Positions 735 to 21,914 are shown, numbered from the stretch's first letter. The stretch: DNA of 64,000 nt from Pseudomonadota bacterium (GCA_043818055.1 JBDRGF010000075.1:10078-74077), one strand, 5' to 3'. The notes: a model not told the origin generated them from the letters alone. Numbers and translations are program-made.

Positions 735-768
735 TCCAAAATCCTGGATCGGAATCCGGGATTTTGGA
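735..768 (+). promoter_or_regulatory. Paired 14-bp imperfect palindromes (putative bEBP enhancer/UAS), operon 1
   Basis: TCCAAAATCCTGGA (735-748) and TCCGGGATTTTGGA (755-768), 20-bp period; same arrangement at 11216-11249. Confidence 0.75.
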
Positions 769-845: not shown

Positions 846-861
846 TGGCACAATAATTGCT
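846..861 (+). promoter_or_regulatory. Sigma54 -24/-12 promoter, RiPP operon 1
   Basis: TGGCAC-AATAA-TTGCT matches the TGGCAC-N5-TTGC consensus, ~60 bp upstream of the first precursor. Confidence 0.85.
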
Positions 862-922: not shown

Positions 923-1015
923 ATGGAAGCATTAAAAAAGGGCATTACCGAAATTGAAATCGTCACAGAAGGCTCTGAAGAAGAGATGCTTTGGGGAGTT
1001 GTTGGTGGTAAGTAA
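923..1015 (+). CDS. RiPP precursor peptide A1, 30 aa: MEALKKGITEIEIVTEGSEEEMLWGVVGGK
   Basis: Hand translated; AGGAGAGG RBS; paralog of the next ORF; directly upstream of rSAM genes; too short for the ORF track. Confidence 0.88.
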   Translation: MEALKKGITEIEIVTEGSEEEMLWGVVGGK

Positions 1016-1044
1016 ACCAAAAACAATTTAAAAAGGAGAGAAAA

Positions 1045-1143
1045 ATGGAAACGTTAAGAAAAGACATCAATGAAATTGAAGTTGTCACAGAAGGTTCCGA
1101 AGAGGAGATGCTTTGGGGCGTTGGCGGCAGCAAGAACAATTAA
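1045..1143 (+). CDS. RiPP precursor peptide A2, 32 aa: METLRKDINEIEVVTEGSEEEMLWGVGGSKNN
   Basis: Hand translated; AAGGAGAG RBS; VTEGSEEEMLWGV identical to A1 despite synonymous codon changes. Confidence 0.88.
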   Translation: METLRKDINEIEVVTEGSEEEMLWGVGGSKNN

Positions 1144-1154
1144 TGAATTAATCG

Positions 1155-1191
1155 TGTATGGGGGAGTCAAACTTGCGACTCCCCTCATACA
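1155..1191 (+). terminator. GC-rich stem-loop after the precursor genes (attenuator or mRNA stabiliser)
   Basis: TGTATGGGGGAGTC / GACTCCCCTCATACA inverted repeat; no U-tract. Confidence 0.6.
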
Positions 1192-1202
1192 TCATATCTA
1201 CT

Positions 1203-2549
1203 ATGAAAAAACTACTATTAAATAAAAATGTTATTATCAGGGATGAAAGATCATTTTGGTTGATGTTTAATCCTAATAATGGAGCTACTGTTAAATTGAA
1301 CAATGATATTGGTAGTCATATCAAAAAGACACTAGATAATGATGAAAAAAAATTAAACATACCAAACATCAGCGAAAGAACGATCGATGTTTTAAACAAG
1401 GAAGGATTTCTAATAAAAGATGGATGTAATAAAGAAGTCTCCCTGAACAATCGCGTTCAAATCGGTGAAAGATGCAATTGGGTGGTTGGCCCTCAGATAG
1501 AATTCAGTTCAAAAATCTCTCCCGTAGGGTTGCTTTGGGAGATAACAAACATGTGTAATCTGAATTGTGTTTATTGTTTGCCCAATGCAAAGGAAAAAAG
1601 AAAAAACAACAAAGAGTTATCAGCTAATGAATTGAACACCATAGTCGACAATATCATAAGGGCAAAGGTTTGCAGGGTGACGATATCGGGCGGTGAGGCG
1701 TTGCTTAGAAAAGATGATATGTTTCAGATAGCCAGAAAATTAAAATCTGCAAACATAATGGTGGGAGCTATTTCGAATGGATTGATCATTGACGAAAAGA
1801 TGGCAGATGAGATTAAAGAATTGGGAATTCTCATGGGCGTTAGTTTGGATGCTCCGAAGGGAAATATCAATTGTATAACAAGGGGAAAAGGCGTTTTTGA
1901 AAAGGCTCTGACTGCTATTAGGTTGTTGAAAAAAAGAAAAATTCCATTTAATGTGATATCTACAGTTACCAATATCAACTTCGACTACCTTCCAGAATTA
2001 TTTCTGTTGCTCAGGTCTATAGGAGTTACCAATATCGGCCTTCAGGATTTAAAACCATCAAATCCGGATGTGTACGAAAAATTTAAACTTACAAGAGAAC
2101 AAGAGCTAAAAATAAATGACATGTACGCATATCTTAAATCAACTTATCCGGAGATATGCTTTAATGATAACGAATTGAGAATCTTTTCAGGATTGGTTGA
2201 TAAAAATGGATGCGAAGACAAAACGATAATGAGGTGTTTGGCAGGCACAGTTACTGGATATATCAATAGCGAAGGTGACATGTTTCCATGCACAAGTTTA
2301 AAAAGCTTAAAAATGGGGAATGCTGTTGAGGATGAAATTACACAGATGTGGCAGCATTCAGAAGCAATGAAAAAGCTAAAGAAAATGAAAAATCAAACTA
2401 CAGATGTATTAAGTGGTTGTGATCAAAGCTGTCCCATCAAGAAAACTTGCGATGGGGGCTGCCGAGGAGAAGCCTTTTATTTAAATGGAGATTGGAGTTC
2501 CTTGCATCCTAGATGCTTGAAGATATTAAGATATGAAAATAAAATTTAA
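1203..2549 (+). CDS. Radical SAM/SPASM peptide maturase (PqqE/MftC/AlbA-like), possible N-terminal RRE
   Basis: CNLNCVYC, SGGE, SPASM CLAG..GDMFPC and CDQSC..CDGGCR..C; ~100 aa N-terminal extension. Start 1203 preferred because 1158 lies in the hairpin. Confidence 0.88.
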   Translation: MKKLLLNKNVIIRDERSFWLMFNPNNGATVKLNNDIGSHIKKTLDNDEKKLNIPNISERTIDVLNKEGFLIKDGCNKEVSLNNRVQIGERCNWVVGPQIEFSSKISPVGLLWEITNMCNLNCVYCLPNAKEKRKNNKELSANELNTIVDNIIRAKVCRVTISGGEALLRKDDMFQIARKLKSANIMVGAISNGLIIDEKMADEIKELGILMGVSLDAPKGNINCITRGKGVFEKALTAIRLLKKRKIPFNVISTVTNINFDYLPELFLLLRSIGVTNIGLQDLKPSNPDVYEKFKLTREQELKINDMYAYLKSTYPEICFNDNELRIFSGLVDKNGCEDKTIMRCLAGTVTGYINSEGDMFPCTSLKSLKMGNAVEDEITQMWQHSEAMKKLKKMKNQTTDVLSGCDQSCPIKKTCDGGCRGEAFYLNGDWSSLHPRCLKILRYENKI

Positions 2550-3564
2550 CACATTTGATTTTCTGATCACAAATGCATGCGACAAAAGATGCTCGATATG
2601 CTGCACCAATCCGCATGCCATGAATGAAATCCAGCATTTAAAATTCAATGATTTTTGTGGGGTTGTCGATTGTATCGAAAAATACTTAGAAGAAAAAAAC
2701 GAAACAGGCAACTGGGGGATTTCGGGGGGAGAACCCTTTATGTATAGTGATCATGAGGTGGGAAAAAATTATACGCTGGTTGATATTGTGGAATATCTTA
2801 GCACAAAGAAATTTATAAATAGTGTTTCCATCAGAACGTCAGGCTTCGATATAAATTCAAAACAAAAATTGATTTTTGATGCATTAGAGAAACTCAGAGC
2901 ACGCAAATTTATCACTTTTACTACTAGCTACAATTTATTTCAAAAAGGAGACATCAACGAAAGATTGAAGTGGATTTTACCAATATGGCTGGAATCTCAA
3001 GATAATCTTGAGATTCAAGTTATATATAATAAATCCAATTATCAAAAGACCTTGGATGGCTTAAATCAGTTGCTAAAGACGGCAAATTTACTTGTCGATA
3101 AATCACAGACCATAAAAATCTTGCAGGAAAGATTGCACAAGTCAAATTATTATAGCTGGTCTATCGATGGAAAGAGAGTGGATATCAAAACATACCCGGC
3201 GTATTCTCATGGGAAAATTGATGGTGAAGAGTTTTTTGAGTTCAAGACAGCAAAATGCGTTTCACTATCAAAAGCGGATTCAAACGCTGTCTTAGTCGTT
3301 AATTTTGATGGAACGCTACATCATTGTTGTAATCCGTATTATAGTTTTAAAAGACGGTTTTTTTCACCAAAGATAGAAGGTCTTTTAAGTGGAGGAATAG
3401 CATTGGAAGATATCGCCAATTTGTTTTCAGATGGTATGGAAAGGGTTCTGCTTGAGCCAAAAATAAAATATAATCTCCAGAGAGATTATTGCGATATGTG
3501 TTCAGTACTACTCTTTGGACCTGTAATTACAGCAGAAGGAAAGTTTTGTGAAAAACCAAATTGA
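2533..3564 (+). CDS. Second radical SAM protein (twitch/SPASM-like C-terminus)
   Basis: CDKRCSIC motif, SGGEP, C..VVNFDGTLHHCC and terminal CDMC. Confidence 0.8.
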   Translation: MKIKFNTFDFLITNACDKRCSICCTNPHAMNEIQHLKFNDFCGVVDCIEKYLEEKNETGNWGISGGEPFMYSDHEVGKNYTLVDIVEYLSTKKFINSVSIRTSGFDINSKQKLIFDALEKLRARKFITFTTSYNLFQKGDINERLKWILPIWLESQDNLEIQVIYNKSNYQKTLDGLNQLLKTANLLVDKSQTIKILQERLHKSNYYSWSIDGKRVDIKTYPAYSHGKIDGEEFFEFKTAKCVSLSKADSNAVLVVNFDGTLHHCCNPYYSFKRRFFSPKIEGLLSGGIALEDIANLFSDGMERVLLEPKIKYNLQRDYCDMCSVLLFGPVITAEGKFCEKPN

Positions 3565-4969
3565 ACAATTGATCAGCTATTTTCCTGGCGATTATGTCGA
3601 AGCCGCGGTTCAGCATAAGATGGTAAACTCATTCTCTTTGCTAAATGGAAAAGGAGATGGAACTGATTTCAGCGGGACAAAAACTTCTGCGAGAGTGACT
3701 TTGTACAGGGGTGGACAAAGGCTTCACCTGCCGATCAGAGAAATAAATGGCAGAATTTCATTTTCGGATTTAAAAGATAAGATTTTTAATTCTCATTTCG
3801 ATAATAAATTTGATGTATATTATAATAAAAACGGTTTTCAAAGGCTCCAAAAGAAATCTAAGAATATACTCCGAGATAAAGAGGCTTTTTACTTAACAAA
3901 ATGCAAGTTGCCTTTCAATTCAATCAACAACAACACAAAAAGAGAGATATTTGCAGATAGATTGATAAAATGTGATAGGTGTAAGCCATCCTTTGTCGAT
4001 CTGATAATTTTTTATCAGGATTCTATGACAGAAACCTGCTATTATAATTCCAACAATTTCTATCATAACAGAGTGGATAGCATGATTGAATTCTCCGGTT
4101 TTCTTAAATATGAGAGAAAACTATATCCAATTTTTTCGCACAACGAAATGGCAGGATTGGAAGTTTTGGTTGATTATGTTTTTGGGAATGGATTTGAAGA
4201 AAAGATCGAGATGATAAAAGTATTTAAGAATGCATGGGCTACAAAAATAAAGTCGGGAATCTATAATGTGATCTTGGACCCAACGCTTGGTGCGGGCTTA
4301 ATTCACGAAGCATTTGGTCATACTTGTGAGGCGGACATCTCATTCAGTAAAAATGTTAAAGGTCGAAGGGAGTTATTTGCCAAATTTAGAAATGAAGACA
4401 TCACTATTGCCGATGATCCAACAATTGCTGAAAAGGGGTTTGTCTATATTGATGACGAAGGGGTTATGGCTAAAAAAAAATATCTTGTTGAAAAGGGAGT
4501 TCTTAAATCCTGCATGCATTCAATATTTACAGCTACAAACAATAATTCAGAAGTTATGGGAAATGGCAGAACATCTGATGCGAGCCAAATTCCAATTCCA
4601 AGGATGACAAACACTTATATCGAGCCAAAAAATATCAGTCTGACAGAAATGTTCAGTTCCCTTGACAATGGATTGTATCTCAAAGGTAACATTGGAGGTG
4701 GTAAAACAAACGGAAGAAAGTTTTCTTTAAATGTTGAACAAGGATACATTGTAAAAAAGGGGAAAATAACAGGGAGCCCTATCTCAAATCTTGTCATAAA
4801 GGGAGATTGTTTTGCTACGATCAATAATATTGTCAAAATAGGAAATGATTTAACATTTGTGAAAGGTTTTGGAGGATGTTCAAAAAAAGGACAAAACAAT
4901 CTTCCAGTGTCGGGTGGGTCTCCTCATCTTATGGTAAAAAATGTTTTTGTAACGCATGTTGAAAGTTGA
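3548..4969 (+). CDS. tldD: TldD/PmbA family metalloprotease (TldD-type)
   Basis: HEAFGHTCEAD zinc motif, DDEG, GNGR..PIPRMTNTY, GCSKKGQ; GTG start. Confidence 0.88.
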   Translation: MKNQIEQLISYFPGDYVEAAVQHKMVNSFSLLNGKGDGTDFSGTKTSARVTLYRGGQRLHLPIREINGRISFSDLKDKIFNSHFDNKFDVYYNKNGFQRLQKKSKNILRDKEAFYLTKCKLPFNSINNNTKREIFADRLIKCDRCKPSFVDLIIFYQDSMTETCYYNSNNFYHNRVDSMIEFSGFLKYERKLYPIFSHNEMAGLEVLVDYVFGNGFEEKIEMIKVFKNAWATKIKSGIYNVILDPTLGAGLIHEAFGHTCEADISFSKNVKGRRELFAKFRNEDITIADDPTIAEKGFVYIDDEGVMAKKKYLVEKGVLKSCMHSIFTATNNNSEVMGNGRTSDASQIPIPRMTNTYIEPKNISLTEMFSSLDNGLYLKGNIGGGKTNGRKFSLNVEQGYIVKKGKITGSPISNLVIKGDCFATINNIVKIGNDLTFVKGFGGCSKKGQNNLPVSGGSPHLMVKNVFVTHVES

Positions 4970-4974
4970 TGTAA

Positions 4975-6948
4975 ATGAATATGAAGATACTCTTAGTCAA
5001 TCCATATTGGTCCATAGTTTCTAAATATACTCCTTATAGTTTATTGCAATTGGGGTCATATATCAATGCAAAGACAATTCATAAAGCAGAAGTGTTAGAT
5101 CTCAACATTGAATTACATGATGATATGTACAATCCTCACATTCTTATTGAAAAGGCTTGTAATTTGGTTTTGCAAAAGGATTTTGACATATTAGGGATTT
5201 CGGTCACCACTATAGACCTTCCGTTTACAGTCAGCTTTACCAAAAAATTTAACAAATTGTGCAATAAGCCAGTTGTTTTAGGAGGGATTCATGCAACTCT
5301 TGCCCCAGATGAGTTATTTTCACTTTGTCCAGTTGATTACATTGTTCGTGGAGAGGGAGAGATAACTATTTCCAACCTTCTGGATAATTTGGATATAATG
5401 AACAATAAAAATCTTAAGGACATTATGGGTCTTTCTTATCGTGATGGGAGTGCGATAGTTCACAATAATAACAGAAAAGTAATTTCCGATCTTTCTATCC
5501 TGCCTCTAGTGGATTATCAACTCATAAAACCATTGAAACATTATTTTATCAACAAACTTAAAAAAAGTTATATCATGTGCAGCAGGGGATGTGGATACAA
5601 TTGCAAGTTTTGTTCAGGCAGTCGAATATGGATGAAACAGCGCAGATTTCCCATTGATAGAATATTGAATGAAATCAAATTTCTAAAAGATTCCGGATCC
5701 GAGTTCATTTCCATCCAGGATGATTGTTTGACTATGAAGCGCTCCTGGTTTTTGGAGTTGGCTGAAGGCATTGGAAAAATAGGCATTAATTGGGGATGTT
5801 TGAGCAGGCTCGACCGCATTGATGAAGATATGCTTGATACAATGAAATCAAGCAGGTGCAAAGAGGTCTATTATGGCATAGAGTCGGGTAGCCCAAGGGT
5901 AAGAAAATTTTTGGAAAAAGGACTGATGTTTTCAAATGAAATAATTATAAAAAAAGTCAAAGACACTTTGAAAAGGGGAATTAATCCAATTTGCTCTTTT
6001 ATGACAGGCATACCGACTGAAACTGAAGAAGAGTTCAATGAAACGGTTAATCTGGCCGTTGAAATTAAAAGGTGTGGTGCAAAACCTCAACTCAACCTGC
6101 TCACTCCACTTACTGGGACTAGACTCAAAGAAGAATACAAAGACAAAATTATTAAATATGACAAGTGGGAGAAAATAGGTTTTGCAGACATTTTTGCAAA
6201 GGATCAACATTGGCTATTCAACTATCTTCTGGATGAGTTGAAGGATTATCTTCCGGACTATTATTTGTTCAAAAATCAAATGCCGCTTAATAGATTTGTT
6301 TCAAAGTATATGAAAGCCAGAAAAGAGCTTTCCCTCGAGAGCAAAAGCAACAAGATGTTTTTTCTAGATAGAACAGAAGATGAGATATTGGTGCTCAATG
6401 GTGAAAGGTTGCGTGTCGATAAAAGCAGTTTTATAGAATTAAAACTCGAATGCGGCATGCTTGATGAGTACAGAGCTCAGCGCAATAAGCTTTCTTCTAA
6501 TATCATTTTTATTCAATTTAAATATTCATCCTTCAAGTGCAATATTATTCCTGAAACAAAGGAATTTTTAACAGAAATCTTAAAAGAAATTAATTCTGGG
6601 TATCGTATAATTATATTAAATCCCCTGCCGCGTTGTTCACTGTCGGATGAAGCGACGAAACTGTTACGTGAGATAACGCTCCCTCATAATTGTCTTTGGT
6701 GTTCAAATCTTTTTTATAAATGTTTGGATAAGATAAAAATGTGCTCAGCCATAGGGGATGATGTTGAGCTCAAGGTTCCATTTGAACACATAGATAGCAG
6801 GAATAGAATATATCGCTATTTTGTAAAAGAAACTTTGGATAAAAATATAATCAGTGATAAAAAGTGTAGTGAATGTTCAATGCAACGAGATTGCACTATG
6901 CTTTGCATAGGTAGAGGTGATCGACAAAACAATGAGAGTTTTGCATGA
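4975..6948 (+). CDS. Cobalamin-dependent radical SAM enzyme (class B methyltransferase-like) with Cys-rich C-terminal extension
   Basis: B12-binding N-terminus (LGGIHAT, GEGE), SRGCGYNCKFC, GIESGS; C-terminal CLWC and CSECSMQRDCTMLC. Confidence 0.88.
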   Translation: MNMKILLVNPYWSIVSKYTPYSLLQLGSYINAKTIHKAEVLDLNIELHDDMYNPHILIEKACNLVLQKDFDILGISVTTIDLPFTVSFTKKFNKLCNKPVVLGGIHATLAPDELFSLCPVDYIVRGEGEITISNLLDNLDIMNNKNLKDIMGLSYRDGSAIVHNNNRKVISDLSILPLVDYQLIKPLKHYFINKLKKSYIMCSRGCGYNCKFCSGSRIWMKQRRFPIDRILNEIKFLKDSGSEFISIQDDCLTMKRSWFLELAEGIGKIGINWGCLSRLDRIDEDMLDTMKSSRCKEVYYGIESGSPRVRKFLEKGLMFSNEIIIKKVKDTLKRGINPICSFMTGIPTETEEEFNETVNLAVEIKRCGAKPQLNLLTPLTGTRLKEEYKDKIIKYDKWEKIGFADIFAKDQHWLFNYLLDELKDYLPDYYLFKNQMPLNRFVSKYMKARKELSLESKSNKMFFLDRTEDEILVLNGERLRVDKSSFIELKLECGMLDEYRAQRNKLSSNIIFIQFKYSSFKCNIIPETKEFLTEILKEINSGYRIIILNPLPRCSLSDEATKLLREITLPHNCLWCSNLFYKCLDKIKMCSAIGDDVELKVPFEHIDSRNRIYRYFVKETLDKNIISDKKCSECSMQRDCTMLCIGRGDRQNNESFA

Positions 6949-9900
6949 AAAGGATATATACAGAAAGATTCTACATTCTTTCGGTTGCTGTCATCATCAT
7001 TCTGGCGGGTATCTATTACTCCCTAAGAATCCCCATAGAGTTATATCCCAACGCCACTCAGACGAAAATAACAGTCCAAACTCATTATAAAAGTCTATCT
7101 CCTTTCGCCTTTAAAGATCGTTATGGAGATTTGATAGAAAAAGAATTGAATGGAGAAGGCGAATTTGAAGAGGTAGATTGTAAATATCAATACGAATATG
7201 CAATTTGCAGGGGAAAGTTGCCGTTCGGTTCAGATGATCATGTAATTTTGGAAAGGGTAAAAAACAAGCTTGAACCAATTTTTTTGTCATTTCCCGCTGA
7301 ATGGAAAGAGGCAGAGGTAAACTTTGGCGATTCCAACAAGGGAGTTCTTATAATAGCATTATACTCAAAAAATATACCTCTGAAAAAGGTCTATGATGAG
7401 ATATCGCCATCGATCAATTCGTTCCTTTCGACTCATCCCGATGTCAGTGTCGGTGAAGTTTCAAATCTTTTTGAAAAAAAGATTTCAATAAGCATAAAAC
7501 CAAATGTTGAAAATAAAATCACCAAAGAAATGATCTTTAATCAACTTAGTTCTTCAAACAATGATATTAAAACCATTGGAAACATTTCCATTGAAGGAAA
7601 TATTCTTTCAATAGAAGCAAGTTCAAAATTGATAGAAAGCCTTGATGATCTCGAAAATTTCAAGCTTTTGACCAAACAAAATGAGATACTAAAGCTGAAA
7701 GATATCGCCGACGTAAAAATCATTCCAGTCGAACCTAATGAATTGTTTAAAGGAAATAATCAAAATTCACTCATAGTGTGGGTTGCTCCTCAGGCAAAGG
7801 CTAACCTGGTTAATTTTAGCGATTCCATCGAATCCAAAGTCAAAGCAGAGATTAAACGTTTCAACGGCGAAGTTACTGCTCAAACGCTTTTGAATCCGGC
7901 ATCTTTTATCAGGAACGCGGTTAAAGACATTTTGTATTCATTGATTATCAGCGTGATACTCTCTGGAATTGTCGTCTTCTTGTTTTTGGGATCCTTGAAA
8001 TATTCCACAGTTATAAATCTAGTCATGCCCTTGTCGTTATTTGGCACTATTTTATTCATGTATATCTTAGGTATAGAAGTGAACCTCATTTCAATGGGGG
8101 CAATGGCCATTGCAATAGGCATGGTTGTCGATGCATCTATAGTGGTAATAGAAAATATTTTTAGGCACCTGCAAAATACGCATCCGAAGGATTATTCCGA
8201 GAAACTTGGAATCTATGTCAAAGCTGTATCAGAAGTTAAAGGTGCACTTTTTTCGTCAACGATAACGACCATATGTGTTTTCGTGCCACTGCACTATGCC
8301 TCTCCTCTTGTCAGCGCCATCTTGGGAGATGTTGCGACGGTGATGACGCTCAGTCTTTTTCTTTCCATGATAATGGCCATCTTTTTTGTTCCTTCAATCC
8401 TTTTGTGGATAAATCCAGATATCACGCAGATGGAAAATTTAAAGCACAAGTCCAATTTTCTAAATAGATGTTTTACAAATATTCAAAAATACTACTCAGA
8501 GGCAGTTAAATGCTTTATCACAAATAAAGTCATCAATGTCCCGATTATAATAACATTGTTAATCCTCTTTTTACTATCTTTATATTTGGCTGTTTACAAG
8601 ATTGACCACGAACTTATAGCAACACCGACATCAGATATAATTGTTTTTCATAGGGGTAATTCAAAAGACGTTGACAGCATTGCTACGCAGGAAAAGGATT
8701 TTCACGATACTGAGCGGGAGGTGTTTAAGCTAACATCTGACTATGTTGATTTTACGCTTACCGTCTTGCGCAAGGATTTAGCGATGATGTTGTTGCACAT
8801 CAAAAATGAAAAATACAAAGAAACATTGAAACAACTTCTCATAAAAAAATATAAGAGCTCAGAAAAATATGAATTCAAGGTAGTCGATTGGGTTCCAACG
8901 CAATTTGAAATACCAGACCCACCACAGATGAAGGTGTTGATCGGCGGTGCAAGCCCAGCTGAAAGCAAATTGATTCAGGCTGAGGTGGAAAAATTCATTT
9001 TAGCAAACAGCAAAACGGTAAGGTCTTATTCCATTCCGACAAGCCTAACTTCGGATGAGATAATCGTTGATATAGACGTTGAAAAACTGGGTTATCAAAA
9101 CAGAATTCACGGAACATCTTATTCAAAAAAACAAATCCTTGATATCTTGAATTTTCACGCGAAAGAAAAATATTTAAGGCACATGAAGTTTGATGGAGCA
9201 AAAACAGCGGTATTTCTTGAATCGGACTATCCCAAATTAAAGAGAGAAAAGATTTCAAGCTTTAGCATACCGTTTGGGAACGGATCGCTAACGCTGGATA
9301 AAATCGCAGACATAAAATTAGTCAAATCAGATAGTGAGATTCACAGCTACAATGGTGGTATGCAATATGAAGTAGATGCCTTTTTTTCGGACAAGGGCTT
9401 CACATATTTCGATGAATTTTCAACAACATTAATTCATAAATTTGGTAAAGAGAAAATATCAACACATTATCCTTATGGACTGATAAACGATACAATAAAC
9501 AAACTCTTTTGGGCATTGGCTGTTTCCTGTTTGCTCGTATTCCTTGTGGTTTTTTTACAATACAGGAACATCTATTACACCTTAATAATATTGATGGCAA
9601 TTCCTACTAGCGTGATTGGAGCTCTCATTTCATTATATATATTCAAATCAACTCTTGGCATGAACGCGCTTTTGGGTCTCATTTTGCTTTCAGGCATAAG
9701 TGTCAACAGCACAATCATCATCATAGATTTTTACGATAAAATAGGCTCTGACGACATCGCTGACGGAATTGTTCAAACGATGAACTTGAGATTAAAGCCA
9801 ATTTGCATGACTGCCTTTACCACTGTCATAGCAATGGTACCCATCGCTGTAAAATTATTCAGCGGTTCAGAGGCGCTGCAGCCGCTGGGAATAACGATAA

Positions 9901-9998
9901 GTTGCGGATTATTTGTTTCAACACTATTGATACTCTTTATCGTTCCCTGGCTACTCTATTGTTTGCCGAAGAAGAGAGTTGGGAAATCACAGTTATGA
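6945..9998 (+). CDS. RND efflux permease (AcrB/CusA family)
   Basis: 1017 aa, GMVVDASIVVIENI, RLKPICMTAFTT, two periplasmic domains and TM blocks. Confidence 0.9.
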   Translation: MKRIYTERFYILSVAVIIILAGIYYSLRIPIELYPNATQTKITVQTHYKSLSPFAFKDRYGDLIEKELNGEGEFEEVDCKYQYEYAICRGKLPFGSDDHVILERVKNKLEPIFLSFPAEWKEAEVNFGDSNKGVLIIALYSKNIPLKKVYDEISPSINSFLSTHPDVSVGEVSNLFEKKISISIKPNVENKITKEMIFNQLSSSNNDIKTIGNISIEGNILSIEASSKLIESLDDLENFKLLTKQNEILKLKDIADVKIIPVEPNELFKGNNQNSLIVWVAPQAKANLVNFSDSIESKVKAEIKRFNGEVTAQTLLNPASFIRNAVKDILYSLIISVILSGIVVFLFLGSLKYSTVINLVMPLSLFGTILFMYILGIEVNLISMGAMAIAIGMVVDASIVVIENIFRHLQNTHPKDYSEKLGIYVKAVSEVKGALFSSTITTICVFVPLHYASPLVSAILGDVATVMTLSLFLSMIMAIFFVPSILLWINPDITQMENLKHKSNFLNRCFTNIQKYYSEAVKCFITNKVINVPIIITLLILFLLSLYLAVYKIDHELIATPTSDIIVFHRGNSKDVDSIATQEKDFHDTEREVFKLTSDYVDFTLTVLRKDLAMMLLHIKNEKYKETLKQLLIKKYKSSEKYEFKVVDWVPTQFEIPDPPQMKVLIGGASPAESKLIQAEVEKFILANSKTVRSYSIPTSLTSDEIIVDIDVEKLGYQNRIHGTSYSKKQILDILNFHAKEKYLRHMKFDGAKTAVFLESDYPKLKREKISSFSIPFGNGSLTLDKIADIKLVKSDSEIHSYNGGMQYEVDAFFSDKGFTYFDEFSTTLIHKFGKEKISTHYPYGLINDTINKLFWALAVSCLLVFLVVFLQYRNIYYTLIILMAIPTSVIGALISLYIFKSTLGMNALLGLILLSGISVNSTIIIIDFYDKIGSDDIADGIVQTMNLRLKPICMTAFTTVIAMVPIAVKLFSGSEALQPLGITISCGLFVSTLLILFIVPWLLYCLPKKRVGKSQL

Positions 9999-11233
9999 AA
10001 ATGTTAGGCGCATTAAAATTGAACAGAAATTTTTGGCTGCTCATAACAGGCCAGTTCACATCGAATATCGGCAGCACAATTTCAGAGCTGGGAATATCTT
10101 GGCTCGTCCTCAAGGAGTACTCGATCACAGAGTTTACCATATTTTCCGGAATATGCTTGCTGCCAAGGGTTATTCTGACTCCTCTGTTAGCCCCCCTCTT
10201 TGAAAGGGTGAATAAGAAGTTGCTGATGATCTTGTCTGATATCGTAAAAGGCATCTGTTTGTTTACAATGTATCTGCTCTTTCTCACGAAGGGTCTCAGA
10301 TACGAGTATATCGTTTCCTTGATGTTTGTTCACGGACTTGTCGGCGTTTTGTTCAGCATTGCGGTAGAACCTCTGTATTACGACATATTATCGTTGGACG
10401 AATATCCAAAGGGGACATCGCTCAGAGAATTATTTGGCCGCATGGCGCCTCTCATCGGACCTTCAGCGACTGCCATAATAATGGCAATATCCGGAAACAT
10501 CGGTCTTTTGCTTCTTATAGATTCAATTACTTTTTTTGTCTCAGCCCTTTGTATCGTTTTTATCCGCTTGCATATGAAAACAGACTTTGAAAAAACGCCC
10601 AAGACAACAGGGTTTAGTTCGTATGCTAAAAATCTGTTTCAGGGGTTGGCGTATGTCAGCAAAAACAAAAATCTGTTGATGCTCTTTACGTCGTTGATAG
10701 CGATTGGGTCTATGTTGGGGGTTTTGGCTTCAATAATGCCGATATACATACGGGATCATCTCTCTTCGGGAGTTGTTGGGTTGAGTATTTTTCAGTTGAT
10801 AGGTAATGCAGGCGCTATAATCGTAGCTATCGGATTGACGATTTGGCAGTACAAAAGCTCACATTCGAGTATATATTCCTTTGGCGTTGGCATCATTGGC
10901 ATTGTCGTCATGGGGCTGGTCGTCACTTCAAATTTCTATGCAGCGACATTCATATACTTTTTGCTGCAGGTGACGATCACCATCGCAAGCTATGCGGCAA
11001 AAATCCTTTTACGGGAAAATATCGAAGATGACTACAAAACCAGGGCATATTCGTTGATGTCCATGGAGCAGCTGTTGCAACCGATAACCATCTCTCTGTC
11101 AGGGCTCGCAATAAAAGCAATCGGGATTGATAGCATCGTGATGATCATAGGTATTACTATAATGATAATAGGGCTTGTTTTGTTGGTGATAAATTTTAAA
11201 ACGAGTCTTGTTTTTTCCAGAATTTTGGACTGA
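9995..11233 (+). CDS. MFS transporter (macrolide-efflux/DHA3-like)
   Basis: NRNFWLLITGQFTSNIG start, ~12 TM; ATGA overlap with the RND stop. Confidence 0.85.
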   Translation: MKMLGALKLNRNFWLLITGQFTSNIGSTISELGISWLVLKEYSITEFTIFSGICLLPRVILTPLLAPLFERVNKKLLMILSDIVKGICLFTMYLLFLTKGLRYEYIVSLMFVHGLVGVLFSIAVEPLYYDILSLDEYPKGTSLRELFGRMAPLIGPSATAIIMAISGNIGLLLLIDSITFFVSALCIVFIRLHMKTDFEKTPKTTGFSSYAKNLFQGLAYVSKNKNLLMLFTSLIAIGSMLGVLASIMPIYIRDHLSSGVVGLSIFQLIGNAGAIIVAIGLTIWQYKSSHSSIYSFGVGIIGIVVMGLVVTSNFYAATFIYFLLQVTITIASYAAKILLRENIEDDYKTRAYSLMSMEQLLQPITISLSGLAIKAIGIDSIVMIIGITIMIIGLVLLVINFKTSLVFSRILD

Positions 11234-11336: not shown

Positions 11337-11352
11337 TGGCACATGGATTGCT
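11337..11352 (+). promoter_or_regulatory. Sigma54 -24/-12 promoter, RiPP operon 2
   Basis: TGGCAC-ATGGA-TTGCT; flanks ACTTTGGCAC....TTGCTATA identical to promoter 1. Confidence 0.85.
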
Positions 11353-12750: not shown

Positions 12751-12831
12751 ATGAAGCAAATGGATTTGCTTGGATTGGACAACATTGAAATTCAGCAAGA
12801 AGGATGTTGCCCTCAGGGAATTGACGGATAA
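12751..12831 (+). CDS. RiPP precursor peptide A3, 26 aa: MKQMDLLGLDNIEIQQEGCCPQGIDG
   Basis: Hand translated; strong AGGAGGAGGT RBS; GLDNIEIQQEG matches the A1/A2 leader; followed by hairpin, methyltransferase and rSAM. Confidence 0.82.
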   Translation: MKQMDLLGLDNIEIQQEGCCPQGIDG

Positions 12832-12864: not shown

Positions 12865-12902
12865 TTATCCGGGGGATCTCATTGCTTTAGTCCCCCGGAT
12901 AA
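12865..12902 (+). terminator. Stem-loop after precursor A3
   Basis: Perfect 12-bp stem TTATCCGGGGGA / TCCCCCGGATAA; no U-tract. Confidence 0.6.
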
Positions 12903-16372: not shown

Positions 16373-18154
16373 ATGCAGCTTAAATTGAGTCATAAAATAA
16401 ACTTCTATTTTATTTTAATCATGCTTCTGGTGACGCTATGTTCTGTTGTATTTATTTTTTACATGGCAAAAGTTGAACGCAGTAAGCAAATCGACATGGC
16501 GGTTTCTAAAATGAAAAATATAGCTGCTATTGAATCAGAAGATATTATTGCTCAAATTCTTTTTCATTCATACTCGTCACTCGATCTAATAAGTAAAAAA
16601 ATTCTAGAAGAAAACAAAAATATATTTGTTGATATTCGACTTAATGATTTTGTTACAGGAAATGAATTGAAATATAAATATTGTATTCCTGATAATAATG
16701 GAGTGTGCTACAACAGGGATGATGATGTGCTTCAATTCGTATATTCCTTGAATTATGGAGGTAAGGATTTAGGAAGCCTCATCATGGCACAACAGATGGG
16801 TTCTTTCACTATGCTGATTAAGCCATCAGTATCAGTAATTGTATTATTTGCATCCTTGGTAACAATAGCGATGCTCGGAATGTTTATGTTCTTTATCAGA
16901 AAAAATATCAGTCAGCCAATCAATATATGTATTCGATCATTTTCAGAAATTAAATCTGGGAAGAGAAAAAATATTCCAAAAATGAATACTCGCGATATGA
17001 ATATACTAGTTGAAAATATTAATTCACTTATGGAAGATTTAGGAATATTTCAAAAAATTGCTGAAAGAAATACACATTTAGCCGCCATAGGACAAATATC
17101 ATCCCACGTCGCACACGATATGCGATCGCCGCTGTCTGTCATACAGGGATATCTGCGGGGAAATCAAAAAAACATGAAACTTCTCGAAGCAGCAAAGGGA
17201 AGCGCAAATAAACTGAATAACATGGCCGATGAACTATTGGATTATGCCAAGGCCTCGAAGATTGAGCCGGTTGCAACATCGTTAAAAAGCCTCGTTGAAA
17301 CCACCGTCAGCAAAGAGGTTAAAAATATCGCCGATGAAAAGGGTGTAAAGCTTATTTATGATGTGAGGGATGATGTTGTTGCTAAGATAGATCATTACCG
17401 AATGGAACGTGTCCTGACCAACCTCATCACGAACGCCGTTCAGGCGATTGATGCGGAATCAGGTGAGGTAAAAGTTTCTGTTAAATCAGACAACGAAAAT
17501 CTCAAAATAACAGTTACAGATAATGGCAGGGGAATAAGCAAAGAAGATCAGAAAAAGATTTTCGATAGCTTTTTCACAAAGGGAAAGATGAGAGGGACAG
17601 GCCTTGGGCTCTCATATTGCAAAAACGTCATAGAGGCACATGGGGGCGCTATTGCAGTAGAGAGTGAAGTTGGAAGAGGAACAGAGTTTTCGATTAATAT
17701 TCCATCTTGTATTACAACACCACATGCCACATGCTACATACCACATGCTGTCCCTAGCCATCAGACATCAGCGGTCAGCGGTCAGCCGACAAAAGGCGAG
17801 TTGGACTCGGATAACGACATCCTCGTCGTCGATGATGATGTGGGAATAATTTTAATATGGTGTGGCCTGATAGAGAAGAAAACAGGAAAACCGCCCATAA
17901 CCGCAAAGAGCCCTGAAGAGATGATGAAAGCCAAAATCGATTACAGCAGGGTATCAAAGGCGATTGTTGACTATCAATATGAGGGAAGTAAGCTCACCGG
18001 CCTCGATGTCGTACAATTTTTGAAAGAGAAGGGCGTGCAGGTGATCCACATGTGCACGGGGATGTATCACGATGAAGAATTGCAATCGCAGGCGAGAAAG
18101 TTAGGCGTTGCTTCGATCATACCTAAGCCTATTAGCGCCGATACGAATATTTGA
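16373..18154 (+). CDS. Membrane hybrid sensor histidine kinase (TM-periplasmic-TM, HisKA, HATPase, REC-like)
   Basis: AHDMRSPL H-box, NLITNA, DNGRG, GTGLGL, C-terminal ILVVDDD receiver. Confidence 0.9.
   Translation: MQLKLSHKINFYFILIMLLVTLCSVVFIFYMAKVERSKQIDMAVSKMKNIAAIESEDIIAQILFHSYSSLDLISKKILEENKNIFVDIRLNDFVTGNELKYKYCIPDNNGVCYNRDDDVLQFVYSLNYGGKDLGSLIMAQQMGSFTMLIKPSVSVIVLFASLVTIAMLGMFMFFIRKNISQPINICIRSFSEIKSGKRKNIPKMNTRDMNILVENINSLMEDLGIFQKIAERNTHLAAIGQISSHVAHDMRSPLSVIQGYLRGNQKNMKLLEAAKGSANKLNNMADELLDYAKASKIEPVATSLKSLVETTVSKEVKNIADEKGVKLIYDVRDDVVAKIDHYRMERVLTNLITNAVQAIDAESGEVKVSVKSDNENLKITVTDNGRGISKEDQKKIFDSFFTKGKMRGTGLGLSYCKNVIEAHGGAIAVESEVGRGTEFSINIPSCITTPHATCYIPHAVPSHQTSAVSGQPTKGELDSDNDILVVDDDVGIILIWCGLIEKKTGKPPITAKSPEEMMKAKIDYSRVSKAIVDYQYEGSKLTGLDVVQFLKEKGVQVIHMCTGMYHDEELQSQARKLGVASIIPKPISADTNI
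17714..17790 (+). repeat. Heptamer tandem repeats in the kinase interdomain linker
   Basis: CACATGC-type then CAGCGGT-type 7-mers, in frame (TPHATCYIPHAVPSHQTSAVSGQP). Confidence 0.65.
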
Positions 18155-18177
18155 ATTCGCTGAGATGGGAGGCAAAG

Positions 18178-19584
18178 ATGAACAAAGATTATACGATACT
18201 CTGTGTTGACGATGATGAGAATTTTCTTGTTCAGCTGGAGAGTATATTTGCGGATTACACAGTTTTCAAAGCGACATGCATGGATGATGCCCTGTCGATC
18301 ATAGACCGGAACGATATCAATACAGTTCTATTGGACATCAGCCTCAACGGCGAGGATGGTCTGGATGGGTTGAACCTGATTAAAAAAAGAAATTCGTTCA
18401 TCGATGTCGTGATGGTGACAGGCCATAGGGACACCGAATATATAGTGAAGGCGATTCAAAGCGGCGCGAGCGATTATGTGTTGAAGCCTGTGGATCAGGG
18501 AGCGTTGCTCGCGTGCGTGGAAAAATCGAAACAATCCAAAAAAGAAAAGGAAAAATATAATGCTCTGCTCTGTGAGTTGAATTCAGCGGATATCGCTTCG
18601 AGGATTGTCGGCAGGAGCGCGGAGCTCTCAAAAATTCTGAATATAGCAAAGAAGGTGAAGGGACATCACAGGGCAAACATCCTGATCGAAGGAGAGAGCG
18701 GCACGGGAAAGGAACTCCTGGCGCGCTACATCCACAGGCTTGAGGAGAATACAAGGCGACCGTTCATTGCGATCAATTGTGCTGCTATTCCGGACAATCT
18801 TATAGAATCAGAATTGTTTGGCCACGAAAAAGGAGCTTTTACCGGTGCGATTGGCAAGAAGATAGGGAAATTCGTTCTTGCTGACAAAGGTGATATCTTC
18901 CTTGATGAAATCAGTTCACTAAAACCTGATCTGCAGGCAAAATTATTGCGCGTGTTTCAGGAAAAGGAATTTTGTCCCCTTGGCGGCAACGATCCAGTGA
19001 AATCGGATTTCAGGGTGATCGCCGCGACCAATGAAAATCTGGAGGAGCTGGTGAATTCAGAAAAGTTCAGGCTCGATCTCTATCATCGCATGAAGATCGT
19101 CAATCTCTACATGCCTCCACTTCGCGACCGGAAGGATGATATAGAAGAGCTTGCTCAACATTTCCTCAGAAAATATTCAGATGGGAAAAGGGGTTTGAAA
19201 ATTGCAGATAAAGCAATCGCAATATTAAAGGAATATTCCTGGCCCGGAAATGTGAGAGAACTGGAAAATATAATACACCGGGCAATCGTCCTCGCTGAGG
19301 GCTATATGCTTTCGGAGAAGGATTTTTCGCATTTGCTAACCCCTTCCTCAGCCTGCATCAATGAAGGGCAGTCCACGCCCTTTATACAATTGTTTTCGGA
19401 GATATCGCCCAAACTCTCCGGCAATGTGATGCCGCTTAAGGATTATGTCATGAAGGCCGAGACCGAATATTTAAAAGAGGTGCTCGATCTCAAGGCCGGC
19501 AACAAAGACGAGGCAGCTGTTTCTCTCAAGATGAGCCGTTCGAGTTTTTATTCAAAATTGAAACAATGCGGTTTTTTAACATGA
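18178..19584 (+). CDS. NtrC-family sigma54-dependent response regulator (REC-AAA+-HTH)
   Basis: LCVDDD receiver, GESGTGKE, GAFTGA, FLDEI, WPGNVREL, C-terminal Fis-like HTH. Confidence 0.95.
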   Translation: MNKDYTILCVDDDENFLVQLESIFADYTVFKATCMDDALSIIDRNDINTVLLDISLNGEDGLDGLNLIKKRNSFIDVVMVTGHRDTEYIVKAIQSGASDYVLKPVDQGALLACVEKSKQSKKEKEKYNALLCELNSADIASRIVGRSAELSKILNIAKKVKGHHRANILIEGESGTGKELLARYIHRLEENTRRPFIAINCAAIPDNLIESELFGHEKGAFTGAIGKKIGKFVLADKGDIFLDEISSLKPDLQAKLLRVFQEKEFCPLGGNDPVKSDFRVIAATNENLEELVNSEKFRLDLYHRMKIVNLYMPPLRDRKDDIEELAQHFLRKYSDGKRGLKIADKAIAILKEYSWPGNVRELENIIHRAIVLAEGYMLSEKDFSHLLTPSSACINEGQSTPFIQLFSEISPKLSGNVMPLKDYVMKAETEYLKEVLDLKAGNKDEAAVSLKMSRSSFYSKLKQCGFLT

Positions 19585-19682
19585 ATTGATTATCTTTTAG
19601 TTTATCGCCACTTTTCGTTGCATTCCCTTTTACAGTTAGCTAAATGGAATTGATCACAATTTCAAAACATAGGAGGGCATCG

Positions 19683-20417
19683 ATGACTAACACCTTTGAT
19701 CATCTCTTTCTGATGGGGCGGCCTGCTGCTGGAAAATCCGAATTCATAGATTTCATGAAAAAAGTTACAGACGAGGAGAGGGCGAAGAAATTTCATATCG
19801 GCCATTTTACCGAGGTCGATGATTTCGTCTGGCTTTGGGAGAAGTTCATGGAGGATCACCTCTGGGAGGAGGTCGGTTGTGAGAGGCTCTATTCATTCAA
19901 TGAGGATGACAACCCGGGACTTAAGCCCGACAAGGGAAAGCTCTTCGATATGATGATAGCCAAGATCGATCATATAGTTCGTGATAATTTTTTATCGAAG
20001 GCCGATTTTTATTCTCAAAATACCCTGATAATCGAGTTCGCGAGGGGGATGGAAACGGGATATAAACATTCATTCGATCTTATCAAAAGTGATCTTTGGG
20101 ATAAAGCCGCGATTTTGTATGTTGAGGTCGATGGTGCGGAATCATGGAAGAGGAACGTCGCAAGGTACGAGGAGAAGCTCAAACATTCGATATTAGCCCA
20201 TATGGTTCCGAAAAAGACCTTCGATGCCTTTTATTCGCATGATGACTGGCACGATCTTACTGAGAATAAGAGGGAGGGTTATTTAAACCTGAAGGGAATT
20301 GAAGTCCCATTTGTTACGATGAACAACTGTCCGGAGTCGACAGATCCGGCTGTGTTAAGCCCCCGTTACGGTCAAGCGCTCGATAACCTCATGGAATTGA
20401 AGGAGAAACTAAAATAA
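19683..20417 (+). CDS. P-loop NTPase/kinase-like protein, paralog 1
   Basis: GRPAAGKS Walker A at the N-terminus; AGGAGG RBS. Confidence 0.7.
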   Translation: MTNTFDHLFLMGRPAAGKSEFIDFMKKVTDEERAKKFHIGHFTEVDDFVWLWEKFMEDHLWEEVGCERLYSFNEDDNPGLKPDKGKLFDMMIAKIDHIVRDNFLSKADFYSQNTLIIEFARGMETGYKHSFDLIKSDLWDKAAILYVEVDGAESWKRNVARYEEKLKHSILAHMVPKKTFDAFYSHDDWHDLTENKREGYLNLKGIEVPFVTMNNCPESTDPAVLSPRYGQALDNLMELKEKLK

Positions 20418-20440
20418 TCAGCTGAAGGGAGTCTTTCGGG

Positions 20441-21163
20441 ATGAAATATTTTAAAAATCTTTTTGTTTTAGGCCGTCCTGCCTGTGGAAAATCAGAATTT
20501 CTGGATTTTATGCGAAATAAGATCTCGGATGATGAGAGGCAGGATATCTATCACATAGGAAAAATGAAGGTGATGGATGATTTCGTGTGGCTCTGGGAAA
20601 AATTCGAAGACGACGATATCTGGGAAAAGGTCACGGGGAAAAGATTTCATTCCAACAGAGATGGACATCTATATAATGCGAGGAGCGCGATTCTATATAA
20701 TTTTTTGACCGAGCGTTTGAGCGAAGAGGTAAAAAAGAATTTAAAAGATCAGGAGTTTTATAATTCAGGGACGTTGTTGATCGAATTCTCAAGGGGAGGA
20801 GAATGTTCTTATAAGGATGCCCTCAATCGCTTTGACCCCGAGGTGCTTAAAAGTTCTGCGATATTGTATATGGAGGTGGATGGGGCCGAGTCGTGGAGGA
20901 GAAATGAGGCGCGTTATCAGGAAAAGTTAAAACACTCGATTCTGGCCCACAAAGTTCCGAGAGAGACCTTCGATACATTTTATTCCTTTGATGACTGGGA
21001 TGCGCTCACTGGAAAAAAACGCGATGGTGAGCTTGATCTTCAGGGGGTCAGAGTTCCATTTGTTACGATGAATAACACCCCCGAATCAACTGATCCAGGT
21101 GTTTTAGCGCCAAGATATGGCGATGCCCTGAACCGCCTGATGGATGTTTTCAACAAGAGATAA
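20441..21163 (+). CDS. P-loop NTPase/kinase-like protein, paralog 2
   Basis: GRPACGKS; shares DDFVWLW, IEFxRG and RYxEKLKHS with its neighbours. Confidence 0.7.
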   Translation: MKYFKNLFVLGRPACGKSEFLDFMRNKISDDERQDIYHIGKMKVMDDFVWLWEKFEDDDIWEKVTGKRFHSNRDGHLYNARSAILYNFLTERLSEEVKKNLKDQEFYNSGTLLIEFSRGGECSYKDALNRFDPEVLKSSAILYMEVDGAESWRRNEARYQEKLKHSILAHKVPRETFDTFYSFDDWDALTGKKRDGELDLQGVRVPFVTMNNTPESTDPGVLAPRYGDALNRLMDVFNKR

Positions 21164-21185
21164 TCAACGAAAGGAAATTTCAACC

Positions 21186-21914
21186 ATGAACCATTTTAAA
21201 AATCTCTTCGTTCTTGGAAAACCCGCCTGCGGCAAATCTGAATTGTTGGATTTTATGACGAATAAGATCAGCTCAGAGGAGAGGTCTAAGATCTATCATA
21301 TCGGAGAGATGAAAGTTATGGATGATTTTGTCTGGCTTTGGCAAAAATTTATCGAGGATAATCTCTGGGAGCGTTTGATCGGAAAGAGATTTCATTCAAA
21401 AAGGAGCGGAAATTTGCACATAGTCGATGACGCTTCTCTATATGATTTCATGATTGAAAAGCTGAATATTGAGGCGAAAAAACTTCTTAAGAATGATGGT
21501 TTTTATGACGAACACACCCTCTTGATAGAGTTTGCCCGTGGAGGAGAGAAGCCCTATCTTCCTGCCATGAACCGATTCGATTCGGAAGTGCTGAAGTCAT
21601 CTGTGATACTCTATGTAGATGTCTCCGCTGAGGAGTCGAGGCGAAGGAATGAAGCTCGTTATCAGGAGAAGCTTAAACACTCTGTGCTATCACATAAATG
21701 TCCCGATGAGGATATGGAGCGCTTTTATCAGTCAGATGACTGGGCCGCGATAACAGGAGGTAAGGTTGATGGCTTCTTGAAACTTAATGGTGTCGATGTT
21801 CCTTTTGTCACCATGAACAATGAACCTGAGAGTAAAGATCCTGTCATATTAGGCCCAAGATATAAAAAGGCATTGGATCTCCTCTATGAGCTTTATCAAA
21901 AAAATACCCTCTGA
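21186..21914 (+). CDS. P-loop NTPase/kinase-like protein, paralog 3
   Basis: GKPACGKS; same motifs as paralogs 1 and 2. Confidence 0.7.
   Translation: MNHFKNLFVLGKPACGKSELLDFMTNKISSEERSKIYHIGEMKVMDDFVWLWQKFIEDNLWERLIGKRFHSKRSGNLHIVDDASLYDFMIEKLNIEAKKLLKNDGFYDEHTLLIEFARGGEKPYLPAMNRFDSEVLKSSVILYVDVSAEESRRRNEARYQEKLKHSVLSHKCPDEDMERFYQSDDWAAITGGKVDGFLKLNGVDVPFVTMNNEPESKDPVILGPRYKKALDLLYELYQKNTL

Follow-up and report, generated by a model that had tools for sequence, protein, structure and literature searches.

What peptides are encoded by the two short open reading frames (ORFs) that stand at the head of a radical S-adenosylmethionine (SAM) enzyme operon, and what might the enzyme beside them do to those peptides? 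The question is raised by positions 923 to 1,143 of a 64,000-nucleotide stretch of DNA from a Pseudomonadota bacterium (GCA_043818055.1 JBDRGF010000075.1:10078-74077), which as a whole is called the window here. The two ORFs, A1 and A2, very probably encode precursor peptides for the adjacent radical SAM-SPASM enzyme. For the chemistry, we give a probability of roughly 0.4 to the reading that this maturase installs a three-residue Trp24-to-Val26 side-chain C-C cyclophane, with a mass change of −2 Da. The features concerned are as follows.

923..1015, plus strand: precursor A1, 30 amino acids, with leader strand E10-G17, linker S18-L23 and core W24-G-V-V-G-G-K30.
1045..1143, plus strand: precursor A2, 32 amino acids, with leader and linker as in A1 and core W24-G-V-G-G-S-K-N-N.
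1203..2549, plus strand: radical SAM/SPASM peptide maturase (Pfam Radical_SAM, Fer4_12 and SPASM).

The translations of both ORFs match exactly those quoted in the preliminary description of this DNA, and a ribosome-binding site of the AGGAG type lies a few bases 5′ of each. A degenerate DNA pattern for EEEMLWG gave two matches in the window against 0.02 expected, and A1 and A2 are the only copies of the EEEMLWG type in the whole draft genome (2.9 Mb, 166 contigs). The host is an uncultured environmental bacterium; its closest GlmM homologues that carry a name share 64-69% identity and belong to MAGs (metagenome-assembled genomes) with the labels Pseudomonadota or Deltaproteobacteria. When 30 codons of the two genes were compared, 16 were identical, seven differed synonymously only and seven non-synonymously. 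Codons 14-26 (VTEGSEEEMLWGV) carry four synonymous changes (GGC/GGT, TCT/TCC, GAA/GAG and GGA/GGC) and no non-synonymous one, which bears out the earlier claim that selection acts on the peptide. Divergence affects about 65% of synonymous sites and about 10% of non-synonymous sites, and the overall ratio of non-synonymous to synonymous substitution (dN/dS) is about 0.07 by a rough Nei-Gojobori calculation on few sites, which makes the duplication an old one that has kept its peptide. Comparison of the two copies strongly supports the view that A1 and A2 are real, paralogous genes under purifying selection.

It is extremely improbable that the small ORFs are non-functional, that is, a recent DNA duplication in a 5′ untranslated region which is open by chance. 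Such a reading would fit the shortness of A1 and A2 and the finding that they match no Pfam or NCBIfam family. An Rfam scan of positions 600-1400 gave just two sub-threshold chance matches. Near-identical DNA occurs in contigs of groundwater and biofilm metagenome runs, and one groundwater metatranscriptome contains contigs that match parts of four enzyme genes with at least 99% identity. The latter are at most a weak hint of transcription; DNA can be present in RNA libraries. No contig of the groundwater RNA library was seen over A1 and A2, which the non-functional reading would also accommodate, but gaps of this kind prove nothing. The age of the duplication and the kept peptide speak against it, as do peptides of the same build preceding homologous enzymes in other phyla and the strongly positive complex model described below.

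A search of 5.8 billion proteins returned only 11 relatives of the maturase, with about 33-37% identity and all from metagenome-assembled genomes (MAGs). Close loci (E≤1e-58) were found 11 times in genome contigs and 8 times in metagenome contigs, some of which duplicate each other or the window, and their MAG labels are Gammaproteobacteria, Bacteroidota, Holosporaceae, Oligoflexia, Myxococcales and archaea. Small peptide ORFs usually sit directly 5′ of the maturase on the same strand. They have a common build, namely a strand-like motif [D/E]-[I/V/F]-x-[I/V]-[I/V], a linker whose length of 7-8 residues is nearly invariant across the family, and then [W/F]-G-[V/A/C]-x-G. The strict form [WF]G[VAC][VG]G gave 13 matches in the six-frame translation of 16 loci; 12 of them are on the maturase's strand and directly upstream of its gene, against about 0.2 expected by chance, with a P value that is inflated because the motif was derived from the same sequences. 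It is present upstream in 9 of the 16 close loci, and two more have variant peptides. The surroundings of the maturase in L012, L033 and L037 yielded no peptide with the motif, and a peptide profile search of the L012 and L013 genomes found none anywhere. A profile of 14 peptides was also run against 1.84 billion proteins and gave 8 matches with E≤0.001, seven of which are of the family build.

One protein, P0136, has 116 amino acids and contains two complete leader-linker-WGVGGSK units; it is a fused double precursor whose core is that of A2. In two loci from Gammaproteobacteria MAGs (L006 and L010), two tandem precursor genes of the WGAGGC type lie about 2 kb 5′ of the maturase, so pairs of this kind recur in the family. 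The same two loci also encode a regulator of the LuxR type, and immediately 5′ of the family maturase lies the gene for one more radical SAM enzyme. Near the maturase of the archaeon-labelled locus L009 there is a gene for an IF-2/aIF5B-type GTPase (2641-4428), and the family may therefore truly reach archaea, in which case the label would be no binning error. In L031, the gene for an Rce1-like membrane protease 3′ of the maturase (5308-7055) is split by an insertion sequence (IS)-like gene of 342 amino acids on the opposite strand.

Binding of the peptide by the maturase was modelled from enzyme and peptide alignments. The predicted complex scored 0.71 against 0.01 for the best control, a mark that is reached by 116 of 157 solved complexes and by 2 of 215 mismatched pairs. 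Contact agreement between runs was at least 73% and the predicted local distance difference test (pLDDT) value of the partner was at least 60. The most confident contacts in the model join peptide residues 10-17 (E10-G17) to enzyme strand 28-33 and helix 56-67, and the peptide as far as residue 27 is modelled to touch the strand ends of the radical SAM barrel (residues 109, 158-160, 186-190, 210-212, 248-252, 276-281 and 319-321). The modelled pose would be the classical arrangement of a leader on a RiPP recognition element (RRE), RiPP standing for a peptide synthesized ribosomally and modified post-translationally. Solved complexes of such a kind exist (SuiB-SuiA), so the pass may partly reflect likeness to them; the model favours peptide binding by the maturase and is no proof of it. 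The homologous peptide-enzyme pairs in other phyla and this model together give good support to the earlier proposal that A1 and A2 are precursors feeding the adjacent radical SAM enzymes.

The maturase has a putative N-terminal RRE-like domain at residues 1-72, a CX3CX2C motif at 118-125 and a seven-Cys SPASM region. Among 12 family members, CX3CX2C and CX9-15GX4C are present in all, and CX2CX5CX3C in 11, the copy in the window having one extra residue. An AlphaFold model of the enzyme (pLDDT 79) shows an extra N-terminal strand-helix domain, and the top Foldseek matches are full-length RRE-bearing peptide maturases, SuiB (E 2e-18) followed by CteB; TigE (8vpo) comes eighth, and anSME and SkfB also appear. 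A profile search of PDB sequences aligned SuiB from residue 5 to 420. The identity to SuiB is 14-15%, and the likeness is one of overall architecture. There was no PqqD match in Pfam even at E≤10 and nothing useful in the N-terminal 105 residues, so the RRE assignment is a purely structural one.

None of the NCBIfam models reached its cutoff for the maturase. The best score was that of MftC, 135.5 (TIGR03962, cutoff 265). WgkB (NF050035) was the fifth-best match with 117.9 (cutoff 650), and lower scores were obtained with nif11-class maturase 3 (88.7 bits, cutoff 725), DynA (79, cutoff 450), GrrM/OscB (71.5, cutoff 310) and AmcB (69.6, cutoff 425); YhhB was not among the matches listed. MftC, the highest-scoring family, reportedly removes a hydrogen from the Val of the C-terminal Gly-Val-Tyr of MftA, the residue next after Gly. 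The mycofactocin system differs from ours, where no C-terminal Val-Tyr is found (A1 ends in GGK and A2 in SKNN, and C-termini vary) and genes for MftB, MftD, MftE and MftF are missing.

Which core residues matter was judged from conservation in 14 sources, that is, 11 loci plus P0136, P0141 and P0142, with the following counts.

Position 24: W in 10/14, F in 2/14 and G in 2/14 (L015 and L034, less certain candidates).
Positions 25 and 28: Gly in all (alignment of 14-15 peptides).
Position 26: V in 8, A in 3, C in 1, I in 1 and G in 1 of the 14 sources.
Six residues after W24 (W+6): Lys in 2/14 sources only (the window and P0136).

The aromatic-G-[V/A/C] triad occurs in 12 of the 14 sources, and in the remaining two Gly stands where the aromatic residue would be; the L034 peptide has G at position 26 with Ile beside it. 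The Trp that the preliminary description took as conserved is thus present in most sources, but is replaced by F or G in four, and the invariant residues are two Gly instead. Its exclusion of thioether chemistry is reasonable, with no Cys in A1 or A2 and Cys conserved at no position in the family.

W24 and K30 are indeed six residues apart in both A1 and A2, as had been noted. A Trp24-Lys30 crosslink would close a seven-residue macrocycle, much as in streptide (Lys-Trp) or tryglysin. The same spacing is found in both units of P0136 (WGVGGSK), the top structural match SuiB is a Lys-Trp cross-linking enzyme, and WgkB stands fifth among the NCBIfam matches. Against this, Lys is confined to two sources at W+6. 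The residue there is Ser in L008, L036 and P0141, Asn in L011, and Gly, Met or Ala in the WGAGGC peptides, while the L016 and L007 peptides end five residues past the aromatic residue and have no Lys. The WgkB score of 117.9 is far under the cutoff, and SuiB resembles the maturase in overall architecture only. The preliminary description had itself made conservation of W and K among homologous precursors the test of such a crosslink and had proposed a search for further family members; these were found, and Lys is not conserved among them. We consider this crosslink very improbable.

The known systems with such products differ accordingly. Streptide (StrA/StrB, SuiA/SuiB) is alike in its leader, which binds as a strand on the RRE in the way modelled here, SuiB being the best structural match with its RRE included, but its Lys precedes Trp, whereas the Lys of A1 and A2 follows Trp and is not conserved. 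The tryglysin system WgkA/WgkB, a streptococcal WGK system of the radical SAM RiPP (RaS-RiPP) kind, is alike in its Trp-Gly-X core and its radical SAM-SPASM enzyme, RRE-assisted there and probably here too. X is Lys there and Val, Ala or Cys here, and contiguous Trp-Gly-Lys is absent from A1, A2 and all relatives aligned. Tryglysin is also controlled by shp/rgg quorum sensing, in contrast to a sigma-54 system here, and the hosts here are uncultured environmental bacteria.

With the Trp-Lys crosslink unsupported, a W-x-V cyclophane remains the best candidate of those named in the preliminary description. The family's aromatic-X-X3 pattern, in which W and F can replace each other and X3 varies, is that described for triceptide synthases, and the crosslink between Trp24 and Val26 is therefore favoured. 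The complete SPASM domain, with its two clusters, is in keeping with an oxidative reaction (−2 Da). The triceptide systems (XncB, OscB/GrrM, HaaB, HtkB, YhhB and ChlB) resemble the family in having an aromatic-X-X3 motif beside a radical SAM-SPASM enzyme, in the W/F interchange, in a variable X3 where Ala is possible and in the expected −2 Da. Ala at X3 is known from the HAA cyclophane, and HtkB tolerates F or W in place of H, according to part of PMC11499958. WGK and WPR are Trp-x-X3 motifs that are described in part of PMC11851443 as cross-linked by the related enzymes WgkB and WprB. The family differs from triceptides in that all NCBIfam scores are far below cutoff and the crosslink is putative; each peptide has the motif only once, extended to Omega-G-x-x-G (Omega being W or F) and at a fixed distance from the leader strand, and two related peptides have no aromatic residue.

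Several points weigh against the cyclophane. Judged by its scores, the maturase is not close to any known cyclophane synthase, and the triceptide synthase ChlB comes only 20th-21st in Foldseek. The core contacts of the complex model are given as a residue list only. The Gly-24 peptides of L015 (4243-4311) and L034 (2492-2581) have the look of true precursors and head their operons, that of L034 with a ribosome-binding site and a hairpin. In the Oligoflexia loci L013 and L014, there are double-Gly-leader peptides with G-I and G-V motifs and without aromatic-Gly. If the Gly-24 and the L013/L014 peptides are substrates of the same enzyme family, an aromatic ring is not required.

These peptides lead to the main rival, in which the maturase acts on the aliphatic residue that follows the invariant Gly (Val26, or Val27) and no aromatic ring takes part. 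The modification could be epimerisation (0 Da), cyclopropylglycine formation between the Val methyls (−2 Da, TvgB-like) or dehydrogenation, and the aromatic residue would serve for recognition only or be the target of a second radical SAM enzyme, rSAM2. Position 26 is aliphatic or small in every peptide and lies between two invariant Gly. A Val-centred reaction would cover both the two sources without an aromatic residue, which a cyclophane cannot, and the G-I/G-V peptides of Oligoflexia. The targets of TvgB and TigE are Val or Ile residues adjoining Gly within TVGG and TIGSVS repeats, as stated in parts of PMC9062424 and PMC10878394, and TigE is the eighth Foldseek match. The occurrence of rSAM2 with Trp-type peptides only (see below) would fit a division of labour.

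Other observations count against this rival. The cyclopropylglycine systems TvgA/TvgB and TigB/TigE also pair a radical SAM-SPASM enzyme with Val or Ile next to Gly, and the GVGG core here resembles TVGG. Their synthases have a strictly conserved, diagnostic GYW motif which gives a tyrosyl ligand to the auxiliary cluster I (Aux-I), according to part of PMC10878394. GYW is present in none of the 12 family members; in the enzyme of the window, GYI stands within a canonical Cys-ligated motif, and the family has every Aux-I cysteine instead. The motif is also single here, and Ala at position 26, found in 3 of 14 sources, cannot form a cyclopropane. Within a Val-centred reading, epimerisation or dehydrogenation is therefore likelier than cyclopropane formation. 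Epimerisation has its own difficulty, for the radical SAM epimerases known to us do not carry a full seven-Cys SPASM domain. Were the ring irrelevant, one would hardly expect W or F to be kept in 12 of 14 sources from phyla far apart. On balance, we regard modification of the aliphatic residue without the ring as somewhat unlikely.

The two Gly residues suggest a further reading, for Gly25 and Gly28 are the only invariant ones. Abstraction of the C-alpha hydrogen of Gly25 could lead to backbone cleavage or amidation, to splicease-like excision at aromatic-Gly or to an alpha-carbon crosslink. The PlpX splicease is said to excise at X-Tyr-Gly, and aromatic-Gly resembles this Tyr-Gly splice motif. 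The nif11-class maturase 3 model does give 88.7 bits, but this is far under its cutoff and below many other SPASM families. There is no verifiable precedent for Trp or Phe replacing Tyr, and the invariant Gly may equally be a steric or turn requirement. We hold a reaction centred on Gly25 to be quite unlikely.

The maturase is not the only radical SAM enzyme of the operon, which is tightly packed from 1203 to the gene for a major facilitator superfamily (MFS) transporter and has A1 and A2 at its head. The other features of the operon and its surroundings are given below.

735..768, no strand assigned: inverted repeat of 34 bases forming a 15-pair hairpin, upstream of the promoter.
846..860, plus strand: sigma-54 type promoter TGGCAC-N5-TTGC, an exact match, 63 bases 5′ of the A1 start codon.
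1154..1192, plus strand: strong RNA hairpin without a T-run, between the precursors and the enzyme genes.
2533..3564, plus strand: rSAM2, a compact radical SAM enzyme with invariant CDKxCxxCC, GGE and C-terminal HC.
3548..4969, plus strand: TldD-like metalloprotease, with HEAFGH in the translation.
4975..6948, plus strand: B12-binding radical SAM enzyme, best named match ApyD.
6945..9998, plus strand: efflux permease of the resistance-nodulation-division (RND) type, from family scans.
9995..11233, plus strand: MFS transporter, from a family scan.
12751..12831, plus strand: third precursor, 26 amino acids with a Cys-Cys core, paired with a methyltransferase and a PapB-like radical SAM enzyme.

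rSAM2 scored 23.9 bits with the Pfam radical SAM model, below threshold, and has CDKRCSICC and GGE. Its structure model (pLDDT 54.6) was too weak for a fold search, and in the ESM Atlas it falls among small radical SAM/SPASM-like clusters without a named function. Homologues of rSAM2 adjoin the SPASM enzyme in L008, L009, L010 (the same DNA as L030), L011 and L036. It is present in all six readable Trp-type loci, the window included, and in none of four non-Trp loci, being absent at L007 and L016 (Phe) and at L015 and L034 (Gly); L031 was left out of this count because the locus is interrupted by the IS-like gene. Genome-wide, four of five non-Trp genomes had no rSAM2, and the L016 genome had one weak partial match (E 1e-8), at a contig end and in the radical SAM N-terminal region only. 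The Trp/rSAM2 loci fall into at least three lineages of the maturase tree. The tree does not resolve its deep branches, so that the comparison amounts to about three lineages against three and has no great statistical strength; that rSAM2 accompanies only Trp-type peptides is suggestive only.

If rSAM2 is taken as a dedicated partner, the Omega-G-x-x-G peptides would be a new class of RiPP produced by a dedicated pair of radical SAM enzymes, with a doubly radical-modified, C-methylated Trp. The RRE-SPASM enzyme would, with the linker as ruler, form a novel crosslink, for example one that spans a Gly and links Trp or Phe with an unactivated Val or Ala at its C-beta or C-gamma; rSAM2 would perform a further Trp-specific reaction, and the B12 enzyme would then C-methylate in the host genome. 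We think this doubtful as a whole.

The B12 enzyme matches ApyD with 157 bits (cutoff 750), and that it is a C-methyltransferase acting on the core is, at this weak score, a reasonable guess. ApyD methylates the C-beta of Tyr, as given in part of bioRxiv 10.1101/2023.10.30.564719. A Cys-rich stretch near the C-terminus of the B12 enzyme has the spacing CX2CX5CX3C and resembles a SPASM motif; a lenient scan matched its C-terminal 217 residues to no Pfam family. A SPASM-like tail together with a B12 and a radical SAM domain would make for an unusual architecture. The TldD-like protease is the probable leader peptidase, and a lenient Pfam scan of its N-terminal half returned nothing useful. MFS genes are also found 3′ of the maturase in L007, L010, L015 and L016.

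The sequence TGGCAC-N5-TTGC, which we take to be the consensus of sigma-54 type promoters, has a second exact match at 11337-11351. Genes for a sensor kinase and a sigma-54 activator lie at 16373-19584, the activator gene being 18151-19584, and the repeat at 735..768 is possibly the binding site of a sigma-54 activator. The hairpin at 1154..1192 has a folding energy of −24.8 kcal/mol (z −5.8), and 0 of 200 shuffled sequences fold as well. It is probably a transcript-stabilising or attenuating stem, and a similar hairpin lies 3′ of the peptide gene in L034.

Downstream of the second promoter match, there are another MFS gene, the third precursor, the methyltransferase and the PapB-like radical SAM-SPASM enzyme. 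The alignment shows that the third precursor and A1/A2 have a leader stretch N/T-x-I-E-I/V-x-x-E-G in common and different cores, so the residues up to about G17 are leader. The Q-G-I-D-G end of the third precursor aligns to the W-G-V-V-G columns, which may be coincidence, and a GC-rich hairpin lies 3′ of it as well (12869-12902). Three tandem ORFs are present at 19644-21914, and the one that was scanned (19644-20417) has no Pfam match. Upstream of the window, deoxynucleoside-kinase-like genes are found at L063 3293-5001, and a gene for a CdaA-type diadenylate cyclase (L063 8861-10081) stands directly before the cluster.

Under the preferred cyclophane reading, the pathway would run as follows. 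From the fixed linker and the binding model, the leader strand would seem to act as an anchor on the RRE and the linker as a ruler, which would place W24-G25-V26 at the active site. The maturase would abstract a hydrogen from the side chain of residue 26 (the C-beta of Val), and this carbon would be joined to the indole, or phenyl, ring of residue 24. One electron would be lost to the SPASM clusters and the product would be a −2 Da cyclophane, as in triceptides and tryglysin. rSAM2 and the B12-radical SAM enzyme, the latter probably a C-methylase, would then tailor the peptide, the TldD-like protease would remove the leader, and the RND and MFS pumps would export the product. Expression would be switched on by the cluster's own sigma-54 two-component system.

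Many orphan radical SAM RiPP families exist. Within the well-known radical-SAM-modified RiPPs, the Omega-G-x-x-G core motif appears new, and the chemistry proposed for it is a prediction from sequence. No literature description of the family was found with motif strings and related chemistry as search terms; the supplementary cluster lists of PMC10288494 and PMC9062424 were outside this search and may list the enzyme group as an unnamed cluster.

New chemistry for cross-linking peptides comes mainly from radical SAM-SPASM enzymes, as in darobactin, streptide, triceptides and cyclopropylglycine. The residues to be considered first in these peptides are W24, G25, V26 and G28, not K30, which corrects the earlier choice of targets. 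With six residues in the shortest members, the core is very small and therefore an easy target for co-expression, and the fixed spacing from leader to core makes the family a convenient system for studying how such enzymes choose their site. As to the role of the product, the exporters and the cluster's own sigma-54 sensor system would fit an antibiotic or a signal alike.

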